This document shows, piece after piece, positions 53,399 through 58,414 of a stretch of DNA of 64,000 nt. Under the pieces are notes generated by a model. That model saw nothing but the letters and a program-made list of their open reading frames with translations, had not been told where the DNA came from and made no database searches. Position 1 is the stretch's first letter. Each line of letters starts with the position of its first letter. The position numbers were made by a program, and so were the translations under genes. Source of the stretch: Parcubacteria group bacterium Licking1014_17 (lineage in GTDB: Bacteria; Patescibacteriota; Minisyncoccia; 2-02-FULL-40-12; IGHO2-01-FULL-4-A); assembly GCA_007376485.1 (NCBI GenBank), contig VMGJ01000003.1:17252-81251 (forward strand), written 5' to 3'.

Positions 53399-54664
53399 GG
53401 AGCTTAATGTCACAGTGACATTCATTTGGCTACCTTGTCGCAGAACTAATAGTGTCACAGTATCACCGCTGCTGTATTTTTGTATTAAGGCGCTAAGAGG
53501 ATTATCGGCTGTCACCTTCGTGCCATTAACTTCAAGAATTATGTCGTTCTCCTTAATGCCGGCTTTATCCGCCGGAGAACCGGGTGCCACGGCTATTTCA
53601 GTCGCGTTCGGGCCCTTGATGACCAAAGCTCCATAATCCACGGCCAGATTATTGCTGTCTTTGATATCCGGGGTAATCATCACATATCTTACGCCAAGGT
53701 AGGCATAAGTAATTTTGCCGGTTTTTGCCACCTGTTGTATATCTTTTTTGGCAATATTAATGGGTGTCGCAAAGCCGATATTCTGAGCCCCGCTGACAAT
53801 AGCCGTGTTTATCCCCATTACTTCTCCGTTCAAGTTGAGCAGCGGACCGCCGGAATTTCCGGGATTAATAGCGGCATCTGTCTGGATTAGCTGCGACAAG
53901 CTTTCCGAAGAACCGCCGGCGCTATCGGATGCCGTTATGGAACGGGAAAGTCCTGAAACCACGCCCCTGGACACGGTGTTGGAAAATTGCCCCAGCGCGT
54001 TTCCGATAGCTATGGCGGTTTGTCCTATCTGAACCTTGGTTGAATCGGCTAATGGCAGGGCTTTTAAGCCGGATACCGGTATTTTAATCACGGCGACATC
54101 ATTAACGGAATCCATGGCTAAAATTTGGGCGGTAAACTCCCTGCCGTCGCTCAAAATAACCGTGAAAGCGGCGCCGTCGATATTGACAACGTGCCTGTTG
54201 GTTAAAATCATACCGTCGGAACTCACGACAAATCCGGTTCCAGCGGCTACCTGCTGTTTTTGTGTTTGGGGCTGTGTCGGAGTTTGGGGCTGATTTTGGC
54301 ACTGATTGCCGAAAAACTGTCTGAAGAATGGGTCAGAACAAAGGTCTTGGAGTGGATAAGTTCCATTTTGGACTACCTGCAGATCTTTTGTTGCGATTAT
54401 GCTGACAACCGAAGGGCTTGACTGCTTAACAACATTTATAATTTTTGCCTCATCGCTTGTGCCGGGTACATAAGCTGGCGGTTGCTGGGTTGCCAAAGAA
54501 GAAGCCGGACCCGAACTCTGAATGTTGTTAGGAATTGTCATTAGAGCCGCTTCGTATCCGAAAATGGCTCCAAAAATCCCCGATATTATAATGCTGGCCA
54601 CTATTGCGCTTATAACAGTATTTTTTTTAACAAAGTTTGCTATTTTTTCTATTATTTTCTCCAT
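53393..54664 (-). CDS. htrA: HtrA/DegP-family periplasmic serine endoprotease with PDZ domain
   Basis: N-terminal TM anchor. The trypsin fold shows TNRHVV (His), a D, and the GNSGGPLLNLNGEVMGINTAI catalytic Ser motif. C-terminal PDZ-like domain. Confidence 0.85.
   Translation of the reverse strand: MEKIIEKIANFVKKNTVISAIVASIIISGIFGAIFGYEAALMTIPNNIQSSGPASSLATQQPPAYVPGTSDEAKIINVVKQSSPSVVSIIATKDLQVVQNGTYPLQDLCSDPFFRQFFGNQCQNQPQTPTQPQTQKQQVAAGTGFVVSSDGMILTNRHVVNIDGAAFTVILSDGREFTAQILAMDSVNDVAVIKIPVSGLKALPLADSTKVQIGQTAIAIGNALGQFSNTVSRGVVSGLSRSITASDSAGGSSESLSQLIQTDAAINPGNSGGPLLNLNGEVMGINTAIVSGAQNIGFATPINIAKKDIQQVAKTGKITYAYLGVRYVMITPDIKDSNNLAVDYGALVIKGPNATEIAVAPGSPADKAGIKENDIILEVNGTKVTADNPLSALIQKYSSGDTVTLLVLRQGSQMNVTVTLSSR
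53407..53421. promoter_or_regulatory. 15-bp perfect palindrome ATGTCACaGTGACAT (same half-site family), inside the 3' end of htrA
   Basis: Direct reading; the half-site TGTCAC matches the repeat family at 51960-52096. Confidence 0.45.
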
Positions 54665-54809
54665 AGATAATGGCTTTTTTAACCAAAAAGCCGGTTATTT
54701 AACCAGTAATCGGCCCTATGTATTACATTATATAATATAACGAAAAAAGAAATCAAAAAGTTTTGGGGGCGGAGCGAACCCCGCTCAAAATTTTCTGTGA
54801 AAATTTTGA

Positions 54810-54901
54810 GCAGGATACTTGAATTAGTCCGAACCGCTTTCGCCGCCTGCGGCGGCGAGGAAAACCCCCCGCGAAATTCTGAAAATGCGGCGAAGCCGCG
54901 C
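54810..54901. repeat. inverted repeat R1, ~92 bp, G+C-rich; partner at 55891-55982
   Basis: The reverse complement of 54810-54901 aligns with 55891-55982. The inner ~60 bp are identical and the outer ~30 bp about 85% identical. The flanking 12-bp-stem hairpin at 54783-54811 is not repeated. Confidence 0.8.
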
Positions 54902-54943
54902 CGATGACAATTTCAAGTTTTTCTTTTGGCGGCAAATTCTTTG

Positions 54944-54989
54944 TTCTTTGAATTATAAAAAAGAGGGGGTCGCTTTCGCAAACCCCCTC
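54944..54989 (-). terminator. rho-independent terminator for the 55013..55675 gene
   Basis: On the minus strand: GAGGGGGT-loop-ACCCCCTC hairpin followed by CTTTTTTAT. Confidence 0.6.
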
Positions 54990-55012
54990 GGTTGAGAAGA
55001 TAGATCTCCGCT

Positions 55013-55675
55013 TCATTGAATACGGCCGGTGAGAAATCCTTTTGCGTTCTCATCCCAGAGAATCTTTCGCGGAGTGGTTTTGGTGACACCAGCTTGCGTC
55101 ACCACACCATCAAGTCGTCCGTTGAAGAAAATCGGAACTCCTTCTCGTAGAGCAGACGAACTCACAGTGTCATTCGCTCGAACGCCGTTGAGAAGCTGGC
55201 TCACACCCCGATTGACGAGATGAATTCCGCCTTTCTCGATCCAGGTTCCGCAGTCATAGGTATGAAGCGAAATCGGTTCGAGAACTTCCTCGCGCATGAG
55301 GTTCTCGCCGGTGATGACGAGAAAATCGGCATCGCTCGGCTGAATGGGAACCTGCTCGGTAACTGGTCCACGAAATAGGCGGTTCCTCTTTACTTCCTGG
55401 AAGCCAGGATGACGCACCGCCGATCCAAATGCGATGACCGCCACGATGTCATCGAGTGGAACGAGGGTGTGATTCACTTTCCATCCCGTCACCAACTTGT
55501 AGAGGTCGGCGAGGTTGATGTAGAAATCTGTGATTGCAGAATTTTGGAAGAATCCTCCGCCCGGATGAACGTATGCTTTTCCGTTCGGGAAATACAGTCT
55601 TCCAAGGCGTGTTGCCTCGAAATACTTCGTGAAATCATCCATGTGCAGAACGGTCTCAACTGCTGTGCTTTTCAT
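55013..55675 (-). CDS. putative Pol-beta-superfamily nucleotidyltransferase, horizontally acquired cargo gene (the ORF extends to 55714, but the start at 55675 is preceded by AAAGGAG)
   Basis: AFGSAVRHPG...PSDADFLVITG fits the hG[GS]x(n)Dh[DE]h nucleotidyltransferase motif (compare kanamycin NTase GSLARGE...SDIDLVVI), with an insertion. Codon usage and G+C are clearly higher than in flanking genes. A strong SD lies 7 nt upstream of the second ATG. Confidence 0.45.
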   Translation of the reverse strand: MKSTAVETVLHMDDFTKYFEATRLGRLYFPNGKAYVHPGGGFFQNSAITDFYINLADLYKLVTGWKVNHTLVPLDDIVAVIAFGSAVRHPGFQEVKRNRLFRGPVTEQVPIQPSDADFLVITGENLMREEVLEPISLHTYDCGTWIEKGGIHLVNRGVSQLLNGVRANDTVSSSALREGVPIFFNGRLDGVVTQAGVTKTTPRKILWDENAKGFLTGRIQ

Positions 55676-55749
55676 CGGTTTTCTCCTTTCAAGGAACTTG
55701 TATTTAGGCCACATTGCCTACGCTTGTAAGAATATAGCATATATGATGC

Positions 55750-57675
55750 TTGAAGTCAATAGTAAACAAAAAATCAGCATCTTTGCTGAAAATTATCTTA
55801 AAAAATCCTTATGAAAATTTTTCTTTTCTGCTTCTACAAAATATGGTTCGAGCCGATGTTTTTAACGGGTTCTTTTGCGGTTTTGATTCGTGCGGCTCCG
55901 CCGCCTTTCCGGATTTTCGCGGGGGGACTTCCTCGCCGCCGCAGGCGGCGAAAGCGGTTCGGACTAATTCAAGTATCCTGCACCACGTTGGAAAAGTCAA
56001 TGCCTCGCCCCGCCTTCGGCGGGTCTCGGCGACCAAATCGTACGGATTTTTCGGGGTAAAAAGAAATTCCCGATTCCGGATTGAAGCTCAACTTGTTGAG
56101 CTCAAAGAATTTGCCGCCAAAGAAAAACTTGAAATTGTCGCTTCCTTTCAGGAAGCCAAAACCGCAAAAGAACCCGGGCGAATTAAATTCGCAGAAATGT
56201 TGTCATTGATTGAGAGAGGGAAAGCAGACGGGATAATTTCATGGCATCCGGATCGTCTCGCAAGAAATTCTGTGGATGGCGGAAAGATTATTCACTTTGT
56301 TGATCGCGGCTTGATTCGTTCCCTCAAATTTCCCTGCTTCTGGTTTGAACCGACACCACAAGGATTATTCATGCTGAACATTGCTTTCGGACAAAGCAAG
56401 TATTTTGTAGACAATTTGCGAGAGAATGTAAAAAGAGGTTTGCGGCAGAAAATCAGAAATGGAGTATGGCCAAGTTGGGCTCCAATTGGCTACACTAACA
56501 ACCCCAAAACGCGCGGTATTGATATTGATAGCGACAAAGCCCCTAAGGTAAAGAAATTGTTTGAAATGTATGCCACCGGAGAATACTCTCTCAACATCCT
56601 CGCAAATTGGTGTGAGAAAAAGAAACTGCTCACTAACGCCGGAAACAAAATATCATTAAGCAATGTTCAGCATATTCTCCAAAACCCTTTCTACATTGGG
56701 TTGATGAGATACAAAGGGGAAATTTTTGAGGGAACACACGAACCGTTAATCTCAAAGAAACTTTTTGATAAATGTCAGGAAGTTATGGTAAAGCGTGGGA
56801 AAGTGAGGCCAGACAGGAAACACTATTTTGCTTTTCTTGGCCTGATGAAATGCGCCTCGTGTGGTTGTTCAATTACGGCTCAATACGCAAAAGGAAATGG
56901 TGGTATTTACACTTACTATCGGTGTACAAAAAAGCGAGGCAAGTGCCAAGAAAAGTATCTTGATGAAAAACAGCTTTTAACACAAATTAAAAACTTCCTG
57001 CAAAAAGTTTCTTTGTCGAGCCAAGACACCGAGAAAGTTTTGGCGGCATTAGGCACAGAAGAAACACAAGCGAAACAACAAGCACAAAGTGAGGCGGTAA
57101 ATCTAAAAGAGCAGTTAGCTCAAATTGAAACAAAGCTCCAGAAATTGCTGGACGTATATCTCGATGATGCACTTACTCAAAAAGAATACGCCACCAAAAA
57201 AGATGTCCTCATTTCCCAAAAGGTCGAGTTAAACGAAAAAATCACCGACTTTGAGCAAAAAGGGGTGTCTTGGCTCGAACCGGCTCGTGAGTTTGTAAAA
57301 TCCTTGAATCAAGCCGCTAATTTACTTGAATCAGAAAATCTTTCCGAAATGACAACATTTCTGAAAAACATCGGCTCGAACCATATTTTACGGAATCGGG
57401 AATTTCTTTTTACCCCGAAAAATCCGTACGATTTGGTCGCCGAGACCCGCCGAAGGCGGGGCGAGGCATTGACTTTTCCAACGTGGTGGTCGTGTTCTGC
57501 CATTGAACCACACCCGCGTTGCCAAGGGGGTTTCGGCGAAACTTCGCCGAAACCCCCTTGGCTGAATTTTTATTTTTTATTTATCCAGTCGGTAACGGAC
57601 TGCCAGAATTTACCCCATGCGTCCGGTTGCCCGGCGCTTTTTTCAATCACGCTCGTTTCTTTATTTTTTGAGTAA
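55750..57675 (+). CDS. large serine recombinase (resolvase/invertase-type catalytic domain + recombinase domain + zinc ribbon + coiled coil). True start and stop are uncertain because the ORF runs through repeats S, R1', R2 and R2'
   Basis: WHPDRLARN (the catalytic DRLxR of serine recombinases), GTHEPLISKKLF, the zinc ribbon CASCGCSITAQY...YYRCTKKRGKC and the coiled-coil C-terminus all match large serine recombinases (A118/Bxb1/TnpX-like). The first in-frame ATG/GTG/TTG before the catalytic region is at 55843 (inside S) or 55750. There is no canonical start just upstream of the putative catalytic Ser (KRNS at aa 104-107 or RVS at aa 91-93). Confidence 0.75.
   Translation: MKSIVNKKSASLLKIILKNPYENFSFLLLQNMVRADVFNGFFCGFDSCGSAAFPDFRGGTSSPPQAAKAVRTNSSILHHVGKVNASPRLRRVSATKSYGFFGVKRNSRFRIEAQLVELKEFAAKEKLEIVASFQEAKTAKEPGRIKFAEMLSLIERGKADGIISWHPDRLARNSVDGGKIIHFVDRGLIRSLKFPCFWFEPTPQGLFMLNIAFGQSKYFVDNLRENVKRGLRQKIRNGVWPSWAPIGYTNNPKTRGIDIDSDKAPKVKKLFEMYATGEYSLNILANWCEKKKLLTNAGNKISLSNVQHILQNPFYIGLMRYKGEIFEGTHEPLISKKLFDKCQEVMVKRGKVRPDRKHYFAFLGLMKCASCGCSITAQYAKGNGGIYTYYRCTKKRGKCQEKYLDEKQLLTQIKNFLQKVSLSSQDTEKVLAALGTEETQAKQQAQSEAVNLKEQLAQIETKLQKLLDVYLDDALTQKEYATKKDVLISQKVELNEKITDFEQKGVSWLEPAREFVKSLNQAANLLESENLSEMTTFLKNIGSNHILRNREFLFTPKNPYDLVAETRRRRGEALTFPTWWSCSAIEPHPRCQGGFGETSPKPPWLNFYFLFIQSVTDCQNLPHASGCPALFSITLVSLFFE
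55838..55863. repeat. 26-bp repeat S (AAAATATGGTTCGAGCCGATGTTTTT); inverted copy at 57364-57389
   Basis: Exact reverse-complement match. The left copy lies 27 bp outside R1'. The right copy abuts R2'. Confidence 0.75.
55891..55982. repeat. inverted repeat R1' (partner of 54810-54901), abutting R2
   Basis: See R1. The R1/R1' pair brackets the nucleotidyltransferase gene. Confidence 0.8.
55982..56079. repeat. inverted repeat R2, 98 bp; perfect inverted partner at 57391-57488
   Basis: The reverse complement of 57391-57488 is identical to 55982-56079 over the full 98 bp. The R2/R2' pair brackets the serine-recombinase core, and both copies lie inside the recombinase reading frame. Confidence 0.85.
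57364..57389. repeat. repeat S' (inverted copy of 55838-55863)
   Basis: Exact match in reverse complement. Confidence 0.75.
57391..57488. repeat. inverted repeat R2' (perfect partner of 55982-56079)
   Basis: See R2. Confidence 0.85.
57521..57583 (+). terminator. strong rho-independent terminator 3' of the recombinase gene
   Basis: 20-bp perfect stem GCCAAGGGGGTTTCGGCGAA-ac-TTCGCCGAAACCCCCTTGGC followed by TGAATTTTTATTTTTTATTT. Confidence 0.8.
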
Positions 57676-57944
57676 ATAATTACAACGTGCTCGTCGGGCT
57701 TTTTGTAGTTTAAATACAATCTGGCAAGTTTATCAAGCCGCTGGTCAATTTCTCCTGAAACTGTCGGCGAAGGCGATGTTTCCTCCACTTGAGTTAGTTC
57801 CGTAACTTTTTTATTTAAGCTTTCAAGTTTTCTGCCGGCGATTACCGCCGAAGGTATTATTCTATACAAAGAAACAAACATAAAACCGGCTACAAGCAAC
57901 AGCCCTATAGTCAACCAGCCCGATTGCAATAATTTTCTGAACAT
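57570..57944 (-). CDS. small membrane-anchored protein, unknown function
   Basis: 124 aa with the N-terminal TM helix LTIGLLLVAGFMFVSLY. Overlaps the next gene's stop by a few nt. Confidence 0.45.
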   Translation of the reverse strand: MFRKLLQSGWLTIGLLLVAGFMFVSLYRIIPSAVIAGRKLESLNKKVTELTQVEETSPSPTVSGEIDQRLDKLARLYLNYKKPDEHVVIIYSKNKETSVIEKSAGQPDAWGKFWQSVTDWINKK

Positions 57945-57946
57945 AA

Positions 57947-58414
57947 TTAACGGATGCGGTTGATGGTTTCCGTGATTCCGTCAGGATCCTTCACTTTTTT
58001 TATAGTCAGCGGATTATCGGATACAGTTCTCAAAACAACATCGCCGTAATCAAAAACTGTTGGCATCAGCCCTTCTTTGCGGTAGCCGACCTCGGAAATG
58101 TCCTTGTACAAAAGTTCAACCGTGGCTCTTGAAAACATGCCTTTGCGCTCGCTTCTGACTACCCGTTGGTTAGTCAGCCATAAGACGTTGTCGCCTCCGG
58201 AAAAAGTCTTGTAGATAACCATTATCAAAGCAAGGCTAACCGCAATTATAACAACCTGATTCCAGTAGCCGAAGAAATCAAAACTAGTCATAAATCTCAA
58301 TACAAAAAGCAGGACGATAATCAAAATCCAGAAAATATACGTTGGCAGGAGAAAAATCCAGTGGCGAGACGTGACCTTTATTAATTTTTCGTTTTGCCGT
58401 AGAATTAGTTTCAT
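57947..58414 (-). CDS. membrane-flanked bacterial PH-domain protein (YdbS/bPH_2-like)
   Basis: Two N-terminal TM helices, then ...LWLTNQRVVRSERKGMFSRATVELLYKDISEV, typical of the bPH_2 family. Confidence 0.5.
   Translation of the reverse strand: MKLILRQNEKLIKVTSRHWIFLLPTYIFWILIIVLLFVLRFMTSFDFFGYWNQVVIIAVSLALIMVIYKTFSGGDNVLWLTNQRVVRSERKGMFSRATVELLYKDISEVGYRKEGLMPTVFDYGDVVLRTVSDNPLTIKKVKDPDGITETINRIR

Follow-up and report, generated by a model that had tools for sequence, protein, structure and literature searches.

The stretch of DNA analyzed here (hereafter, the window) comprises 64,000 nucleotides (nt) of contig VMGJ01000003.1 from Parcubacteria group bacterium Licking1014_17, and it contains a serine recombinase open reading frame (ORF) that raises an unusual question: why does the frame run uninterrupted through inverted repeats at both of its ends? 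According to the ORF listing of the window, the frame occupies positions 55750..57675 (+), begins with TTG, and encodes 641 amino acids (aa). An earlier note on this DNA offered two explanations, namely that a repeat insertion had disrupted the 5' end of the gene and made it a pseudogene, or that inversion between the repeats would regenerate an N-terminal coding segment. We assign a probability of about 0.8 to another reading: the window carries a decayed copy of a conserved large-serine-recombinase locus linked to transfer RNA (tRNA) genes, the relatives of which would follow the model of attachment sites, inversion, and cassettes developed below.

A repeat search combined with blastn recovered the three long inverted pairs known from the earlier note. 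R2 and R2' are exact reverse complements over 98 nt, S and S' over 26 nt, and R1 and R1' (55881-55981) are 88% identical over 101 nt, or 92% over 90 nt. That list was incomplete. Three further inverted copies of recombinase coding DNA had been overlooked (56103-56139 against 54906-54943, 97% over 38 nt by blastn; box B against box x; and box C against box C'; Table 1), together with three perfect inverted repeats of 15–16 nt each within the recombinase gene. No third copy of R1, R2, or S was found in the 64 kb, all repeat pairs were inverted, and their occurrence is far above chance expectation. The frame is indeed open across S, R1', R2, S', and R2', as had been noticed, and the repeat peptide is also encoded on the minus strand, where HHVGKVNASPRLRRVSATKSYGFFGVKRNSRF is read in ORF 57309..57503 (-). 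The peptide AGGxPRRRRRRKRFGLIQVSC is encoded by both R1 and R1' (ORFs 54753..55016 (-) and 55811..56059 (+)), but not in the recombinase frame, in which R1' translates as RGGTSSPPQAAKAVRTNSSILH.

The domain content of the ORF showed that its catalytic beginning is lacking. In the Pfam search, PF00239 (Resolvase) matched at profile positions 15–145 only, positions 1–14 having no counterpart, and was followed by PF07508 (Recombinase; E=1.8e-18, residues 262–348) and PF13408 (zinc ribbon; E=1.8e-8, residues 362–417). What is absent is the N-terminal catalytic part: the nucleophilic serine (the S of YARKST, equivalent to S10) together with the beta-strand before it. A protein search returned 6504 relatives at E <= 1e-10, all named matches being Patescibacteria or unclassified bacteria. 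The 100% match was the 630-aa “recombinase” of Parcubacteria group bacterium Licking1014_17; thus, the public annotation carries the same long frame. The intact relatives are 75–92% identical to the window protein (the best of them 89–92%), and all three Pfam domains are present in nearly all of the 120 homologs listed.

The alignment with these homologs (alignment A1) located both ends of the gene. The homologs start with MKYIIYARKSTEEDDRQVLSIEAQ, MKYIIYARKSTEEDDRQ, or MKYIIYARKSTEEDDRQVLSIEAQLVELKEF (MKYIIYARKST...), whereas the homology of the window ORF is lost exactly upstream of IEAQ, at the end of R2, where the first 20 residues of the homologs are replaced by leader-derived sequence. 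At the other end, the homologs continue through S' and R2' with the conserved sequence NIGSNHILRNREFxFxPKxxYxLVAE...LxFPxWC and diverge only past TWC, into translated antisense tRNA. S' and R2' therefore belong to the native C-terminal coding sequence, of which S and R2 are inverted copies. The final ~60 codons of the ORF (57489-57675) cross a tRNA remnant, a terminator hairpin, and the antisense strand of the next gene. It had been stated that repeat DNA encodes both ends of the protein, and this held for S' and R2', which are conserved coding sequence in the relatives; it did not hold for S, R1', and R2, which form a conserved non-coding leader. The RVS and KRNS motifs, formerly regarded as the candidates for the catalytic serine, belong to this leader DNA, where C-terminal codons are read in reverse complement, and neither of them aligns with the YARKST nucleophile.

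Related loci are designated by L numbers; the locus search confirmed 447 encoding stretches, and its best 80 loci were analyzed. The closest intact locus, L087, whose neighboring gene is 97% identical to that of the window, contains 102 nt that are missing in the window between ..GATTCCG and GATTGAAGC.. / GATTGAAGCTCAA. The lost segment comprised the T' box, the spacer with the ribosome-binding region, the ATG, and 59 nt of coding sequence (19.7 codons, including that of the catalytic serine). A search of the window found no copy of the deleted 102 nt, except for the match of box T at 55814-55835. The 641-aa ORF is an annotation artefact, because the deletion at 56078/56079 fused the stop-free frame of the leader (S, x, r1, and a) in frame to the gene. 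In-frame start codons remain only at a distance upstream, within the leader. A short N-terminus of the normal kind is indeed found in homologs, as the earlier note had considered; however, no internal GTG or TTG was missed, since the N-terminus is deleted here. Likewise, the suggestion of a pseudogene was right in its outcome, but the cause was this deletion and not a repeat insertion, S-R1'-R2 being the normal leader of every intact relative.

Judged from these comparisons, the window gene is very probably a recently inactivated pseudogene. The remaining 470 codons contain no stop and no frameshift, which suggests either that the inactivation was recent or that the truncated protein is still used. 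The second possibility, a truncated gene kept under selection for 5' deletions as a catalytically dead DNA-binding protein with its recombinase domain, zinc ribbon, and coiled coil, for example a repressor or a dominant-negative immunity factor at the attachment sites, would agree with the open frame and its 92% identity to an intact homolog, and also with the occurrence of 5' deletions abutting arm a, independent of that in the window, in L042, L073, and L106 and of 5'-truncated copies in L055 and L059. Nevertheless, we consider it unlikely: T', the ribosome-binding region, and the start codon are gone, and the surroundings of the gene fit general decay. The two r1 copies of the window have drifted to 88–92% identity, although arms a and a' are still 100% identical, and the adjacent tRNA gene is damaged. 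ARAGORN found no tRNA in this region; the tRNA-Gly remnant, of which nt 1–30 (the acceptor 5' strand, the D arm, and the anticodon stem 5' strand) are retained, is not functional because ~40 nt are deleted.

Intact relatives share one order of elements: an outer module of reverse-complemented r1 and reverse-complemented A, one or two variable (V) genes, the boxes T, S, x, r1, a, and T', the recombinase gene ending in S' and a', and a tRNA gene on the opposite strand. In nearly all related loci with enough flank, arm a (~100 nt, at -144..-44 from the ATG) is 98–100% identical to the reverse complement of the final ~100 nt of the gene. Box S at about -287 (-287..-261) mirrors the 27 nt preceding the arm (97% paired, 11 positions changed on both sides), box x at about -258 mirrors the KTAKEPG codons (95% paired, 8 positions changed on both sides), and box T at about -315 mirrors T' just before the ATG. 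The leader thus lies ~44 nt upstream of the standard start, with the same boxes at the same offsets in ~45 loci. It is stop-free over ~100 codons in nearly all relatives, and gene callers have placed 99–104-aa ORFs or N-terminal extensions across it in other genomes; since the open frame varies by locus, the leader is not a protein. A small arginine-rich leader protein (AGGxPRRRRRRKRFG) was ruled out, as different frames are open and the indels are not multiples of three.

The pairing of these boxes is maintained while their sequences change. In an alignment of 37 loci, 88.7% of the cells pair, compared with 78.7% after shuffling and 38–50% with the partner slid. Helices T, S, x, and a are 88–99% paired, with 110 positions changed on both sides; arms a and a' are 96–99% paired, with changes on both sides at 84 of 96 positions. 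The coding sequence itself also contains such repeats. Perfect inverted repeats of at least 12 nt were present at conserved positions in 10 of 11 copies tested (3–8 per copy, the remaining copy having 1), compared with 0.05–0.15 in shuffles, and the window remnant has 5 of them, compared with 0.09 expected from 200 synonymous-codon shuffles. In the relatives, 8–11 conserved long-range repeats of this kind were seen within the gene. They are 12–17 nt long, nested in three-way junctions, 30–80 times commoner than in shuffles, and recur at the same positions in relatives. The hairpin at 56140-56156 (recombinase nt 120–136 in relatives) has a 6-bp stem with the variants GCTTCC..GGAAGC, GCCTCT..AGAGGC, and GCCTCG..CGAGGC, and the double changes switch the residue before Glu between Q and C, H, D, or S (ASFQEA, ASLCEA, ASFHEA, ASLDEA, ASHSEA). 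The comparison of these variants indicates that nucleic-acid pairing overrides the protein sequence at this site.

Such covariation is also what a folded RNA strand would produce, in which the leader pairs with the 3' end and internal segments of the messenger RNA and controls its translation or stability. The strong two-sided changes in T:T', S:S', x:B, and a:a', the compensatory changes in the intragenic hairpin, and the tidy three-way junctions of nested helices all speak for it. Still, this explanation appears improbable. G.T and A.C mismatches are equally frequent in the pairs (441 and 479), with no sign of the wobble tolerance of a single strand, which argues against a one-strand RNA fold and for a cause at the DNA level. 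In addition, the perfect identity over 100 nt exceeds the need of selection for pairing, the partners r1 and A lie beyond another gene, on its far side, and inversion of DNA at a:a' was observed. Rfam gave no match at gathering thresholds in the 64 kb, and a search of 54600-57700 with E up to 1 gave four sub-threshold matches, the best with E = 0.03 and 23 bits against a gathering threshold of 59.6 bits. RNAalifold did not yield a consensus for 19 r1 copies, owing to hairpins of varying length and an out-of-register alignment. One planar fold that accommodates every repeat was ruled out, as T:T', S:S'/x:B, and a:a'/r1:r1 cross, which prevents them from all forming in the same molecule. The crossing repeats make better sense as homology blocks that are permuted between two units.

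It is very improbable that the inverted repeats or the 102-nt deletion are chimeric joins made by the assembler or during amplification. The window does come from a metagenome-assembled genome, and the contigs of relatives often break in or beside the element; however, more than 45 independent assemblies, produced in different studies, share this architecture with arms specific to each locus, other assemblies contain 5' deletions that are similar to that of the window without being identical, and L087, a near-identical neighbor, was assembled as an intact version.

Evidence for inversion came from a metagenome scan for the diagnostic order r1/a/S, which returned six loci. In L102 (7229-8916) and L105 (7022-8780), the segment from T' through the recombinase gene to S' is flipped relative to the leader. 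The flipped gene of L105 is an intact 499-aa frame starting with MRYILYARKST and is also flipped relative to a tRNA 3' fragment; the contig of L102 stops short of the second arm. Flipping places the gene immediately downstream of the tRNA (fragment) and in the same orientation, whereas all 55 tRNA-linked genome loci have the other orientation. L104 shows the order expected of an excised circle, but it is not decisive because the contig starts inside r1. In L106 and L073, the inner arm is extended by S and C, and the 5' end of the recombinase gene is lost. Inversion of the segment between a and a' is thus real in relatives. Since the arms are identical, it exchanges orientation only, and recurrent flipping, by the enzyme or by homologous recombination, or conversion from arm to arm would explain why they stay identical.

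Consequently, the idea of inversion survived in part: arms of the R2/R2' type do bracket an invertible segment in L102 and L105, but the whole gene moves and its coding sequence is unchanged, so inversion cannot rebuild the lost N-terminus of the window. The least probable explanation of all is that inversion, whether at R2 and R2' or at R1 and R1', provides a functional N-terminus with the serine of RVS or KRNS as the nucleophile, which would suit the frame open through the repeats and the inversion of the arm-bounded segment in relatives, but R2 is the reverse complement of conserved C-terminal codons within a non-coding leader, the flipped loci still start with MRYILYARKST, the Resolvase match begins only at profile position 15, and the missing codons are absent from the window.

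Returning to the reading of the window as a decayed tRNA-linked recombinase locus, the linkage itself was found in 55 of the 80 loci: there, the gene and a tRNA gene of the opposite strand overlap, the former with its 3' end and the latter with its CCA end. At least 13 amino-acid specificities are represented among these tRNAs (Arg, Leu, Lys, Phe, Ile, Val, Ala, Gly, Gln, Glu, Asn, Met, and Ser). Serine integrases act on two attachment (att) sites of ~40–50 bp with a shared central dinucleotide, and excision, in which attL and attR yield attP and attB, usually involves a directionality factor. Read along the tRNA strand, the order tRNA-CCA / a ... r1-CCA / host would correspond to an attL...attR layout, with r1-CCA/a as attP. 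The sole block common to r1 and all the tRNAs is the GTTCG T-loop box; in 26 of 29 loci, its distance is 24 nt to the end of the tRNA and 29 nt to that of r1. In LI integrase, the motif of the zinc-ribbon domain is likewise shifted 5 bp outward in attP relative to attB (PMC3783163). The end of r1 shares on average 5.9 nt with the end of its own tRNA, compared with 4.0 after permutation of the loci (for instance, CAGCCA with tRNA-Gln and CCGCCA with tRNA-Ser). The identity between inner and outer r1 ends after N73-C74 in about half of the loci, which would place the exchange point there. On this basis, the recombinase would recognize r1-CCA/a as an attP-type site and the tRNA 3' end as an attB-type site, the GTTCG box would be the zinc-ribbon-domain motif, displaced outward by 5 bp in r1 relative to the tRNA, and strand exchange would occur at about N73-C74. 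We lean, with only modest confidence, towards this att-site model.

Several observations concern the history of the loci at their tRNA genes. In L002, L011, and L048, a partial tRNA 3' fragment lies between the intact tRNA and arm a, and in L034, L049, and L105, only a fragment is present; earlier insertions or imprecise events may have left these fragments behind. Some genomes contain copies at different tRNAs (L026/L036/L072, L009/L057, L048/L067, and L062/L064), which are old lineages and not recent duplicates, and proteins from different Patescibacteria classes are still 75–90% identical. Recent intragenomic transposition was ruled out by the DNA identity of only 65–89% among copies of one genome. 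Indirect signs of integration and excision are the variety of tRNA genes, the remnant without a recombinase in L081, and the circle-like order of L104. A phage origin was also rejected, as viral contigs gave two partial matches only. No candidate for a recombination directionality factor stood out beside the recombinase gene, although no search aimed at one was made.

The second half of the architecture is the outer module. In 45 of 54 loci, a second, inverted r1 with box A (recombinase nt 83–119) was found ~1 kb further upstream, and the A-r1 junction is present in nearly all relatives. The two r1 copies of a locus are 98.8% identical (median), compared with 74% between loci, and the outer r1 of the relatives ends tRNA-like in ..GCAC(CA), marking the far boundary of the locus. 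Between the outer module and T lies the V gene (0.6–1.0 kb), which is unrelated from locus to locus and points away from the recombinase wherever its strand is clear. The V genes seen encode a methyltransferase, NAD(P)HX dehydratase, MOSC, bPH_2, and Metallophos proteins, secreted proteins, and the 233-aa ORF of the window. A conserved cargo was ruled out, since V proteins are almost all mutually unrelated and the other 80 loci contain no homolog of the 233-aa protein.

Two loci, L002 (-2434..-290 relative to the ATG) and L075 (-2618..-284), contain two complete tandem units of the composition B S' T' - gene - A r1, with unrelated genes that are divergent from the recombinase, and a second A box lies further upstream in L001, L029, and L052. 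The layout of L002 and L075 is integron-like but made of recombinase gene fragments. Compared block by block, the unit B S' T' V A is a circular permutation of the recombinase unit T' N A hairpin B (C...C') S', in which the C...C' stem-loop was removed and N was replaced by V, and this permutation accounts for the crossing of the inverted pairs. The V units could be cassette-like derivatives of the recombinase unit, a reading that we put forward tentatively. A recombinase-less remnant was seen in L081/L084 (3745-4932), where the initial ~36 nt of arm a come after tRNA-Arg(tct) and are fused via the shared GTCGCCTCGCTT to hairpin-B-S'-T' boxes; a 72% homolog of the window V gene is next, and then A-r1.

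Not all of the data favor the reading of the window as a decayed copy of such a locus together with its att-site, inversion, and cassette model. The 470 open codons of the window, already mentioned, count against it. The host-side half-site (B') shows no conservation or motif, an empty site was not recovered (the recombinase-less L081 still carries the arm remnant), and neither was an unambiguous circle junction, L104 being suggestive only. Together with the 65–89% DNA identity of copies in one genome, the unconserved B' and the lack of an empty site indicate that movement is ancient or rare. Moreover, neither the inverted inner copy of the r1/a junction nor the dense intragenic inverted repeats have a role in the classical integrase scheme.

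Comparison with known systems showed partial similarity to several of them. Large serine recombinases (A118/LI, Bxb1, phiC31, TP901-1; TnpX and TndX; CcrAB of SCCmec) have the same three domains, and in serine integrases, the gene is likewise located at the edge of the unit with its 3' end running into the attachment site. The shared box, which would sit 5 bp farther out in the site of the element than in that of the host when counted from the exchange point, would be a feature in common with LI integrase (PMC3783163). Unlike serine integrases, the present loci target the 3' ends of many different tRNA genes, in place of a single locus, with an unconserved outer half-site in the host, and they carry an inverted full r1/a copy inside the unit, so that the gene is bracketed by 100-nt inverted repeats and can flip. 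The copies in one genome are old and divergent, and that of the window lacks the catalytic serine.

With Hin/hix, Gin/gix, Cin, and Pin, the loci share the topology alone, i.e., a recombinase gene in a segment bounded by inverted repeats that occurs in both orientations in nature. The enzyme is a three-domain large serine recombinase of ~490 aa, in contrast to an invertase of ~190 aa with a C-terminal helix-turn-helix; the arms are ~100 nt long and overlap the last 33 codons of the enzyme, in contrast to 26-bp sites; no counterpart of the Fis-dependent enhancer is known here; and one orientation predominates strongly (55 loci versus 2–3), the flipping being due to the enzyme or to homologous recombination. 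Integrons (IntI, attI, attC) resemble the loci in having a recombinase gene divergent from one or two promoter-proximal, co-oriented units, each with a single unrelated gene, and a conserved, hairpin-rich inter-unit sequence of ~200 nt. However, in place of the IntI tyrosine recombinase, attI, and attC cassettes, we found a serine enzyme and unit boundaries (A-r1-B-S'-T') made of pieces of the recombinase gene, with arrays of one or two units in a locus anchored to a tRNA gene. Finally, the insertion at tRNA 3' ends, the direct repetition of r1 ..GCACCA at the far boundary, and the partial tRNA 3' fragments beside some loci are shared with tRNA-targeting islands and tycheposon-like elements. 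These mostly use tyrosine integrases, whereas the present loci have a serine enzyme, a proposed exchange point at the discriminator/CCA and not in the tRNA body, and a unit of ~3 kb with an internal inverted-repeat architecture.

The locus type is thus a variant of serine-recombinase systems. It is widespread in bacteria of the candidate phyla radiation and appears to be undescribed; full-text searches of the literature gave no description of such a locus. To our knowledge, the mobile elements of these bacteria are poorly known. It is possible, though rather doubtful, that Patescibacteria harbor a serine-recombinase counterpart of the integron at tRNA 3' ends, with T-loop/CCA recognition, a flip-flop gene between 100-nt arms, exchanged single-gene cassettes bounded by hairpin-forming boxes of recombinase origin, and inverted repeats, those within the gene included, that are the folded-DNA substrate of this recombination or its footprint. 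An enzyme that recognizes the T-loop/CCA end of many tRNA genes would be a naturally occurring multi-site serine integrase whose targeting rule can be read, which would make it interesting for genome engineering, and the system would give a first handle on gene flow in candidate-phyla-radiation bacteria. Two features are unusual in any case: the arms are identical within a locus and 25–35% divergent between loci, and a protein gene is packed with conserved, perfect long-range inverted repeats, one of which apparently dictates an amino-acid switch. The arms and the intragenic repeats make the link between recombination, DNA secondary structure, and coding constraint directly testable. For the window itself, both the public 630-aa “recombinase” annotation and the idea of a coding switch would rest on a dead gene with an accidental frame. 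The features of the window are summarized in Table 1.

Table 1. Elements of the recombinase locus in the window and the observations on which each assignment is based.
Feature	Position	Strand	Basis or remark
Outer box r1 (R1)	54810..54910	-	GC-rich, hairpins; repeat I2, blastn, mapping to L001
Box A', copy of recombinase nt 83–119 (KEFAAKEKLEIV)	54906..54946	-	Repeats I5 and I6; fused to outer r1
Terminator-like hairpin and T run after the variable gene	54961..54990	-	GAGGGGGTTTGCGAAAGCGACCCCCTCTTTTTT, read from the sequence
Variable gene V, 233-aa ORF, annotated as 220 aa	55013..55714	-	Transcription away from the recombinase
Box T, inverted partner of T'	55811..55836	+	T' deleted in the window; precedes the start codon in intact relatives
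Box S, non-coding inverted copy of codons NIGSNHIL (S')	55838..55863	+	Repeat search, blastn
Box x, non-coding inverted copy of codons KTAKEPG (box B)	55866..55885	+	Repeat I7
Inner box r1 (R1'), ending ..GTTCGGACTAATTCAAGTATCCTGCACCA; proposed P arm	55886..55985	+	GTTCG spacing, tRNA-end match
Arm a (R2), inverted copy of the final 98 nt of the gene; bounds the invertible segment on the left; proposed P' arm	55981..56078	+	Repeat I1, 100%
Deletion junction, 102 nt missing: T', ribosome-binding region, ATG, codons 1–19.7 (MKYIIYARKSTEEDDRQVLS)	56078..56079	+	Comparison with L087, L001, and L002; protein alignment
Large serine recombinase gene remnant, IEAQLVEL... to ...LTFPTWW	56080..57488	+	Pfam, homologs, protein alignment, tblastn
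Perfect hairpin, 17 nt, GCTTCC TTTCA GGAAGC (ASFQEA), between boxes A and B	56140..56156	+	Two-sided changes in relatives
Boxes B (56157-56176) and C (56192-56207), which pair as coding sequence with x and C'	56157..56207	+	Repeats
Span with three intragenic perfect inverted repeats	56371..57278	+	56371-56386/56658-56673; 56753-56767/57001-57015; 57016-57030/57264-57278
Boxes C' (57348-57363) and S' (57364-57389), native C-terminal codons EMTTFLKNIGSNHIL	57348..57389	+	blastn, protein alignment
Arm a' (R2'), native last 33 codons RNREFLFTPKNPYDLVAE...LTFPTWW; right boundary of the invertible segment	57391..57488	+	Ends at the CCA of the opposite-strand tRNA
tRNA-Gly remnant: nt 1–30 joined to ACCA, ~40 nt deleted	57484..57517	-	Comparison with tRNA-Gly(ccc) of L057
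Perfect 20-bp hairpin and plus-strand T run, terminator-like	57521..57562	.	Repeat I8; the artefactual ORF crosses the hairpin

The V protein of the window contains no Pfam domain. Its homologs in L087 (97%) and L081 (72%, without a recombinase) have the same flanking boxes, whereas that in L088 (42%) lacks them. On the minus strand of the window (55700-55770 and 55750-55800), the hairpin CAGCAAAGATGCTG with a T run, a promoter-like pair TTGACT-17-TATATT, and AAGGAG upstream of the annotated start at 55675 were noticed; with promoter-like, Shine-Dalgarno-like, and terminator-like signals of its own, the V gene would be insulated from the leader. Beyond the tRNA remnant, a bPH_2 membrane protein is encoded at 57947-58414 (-). 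An unrelated bPH_2 protein is the V gene product of L056, which is probably a coincidence.

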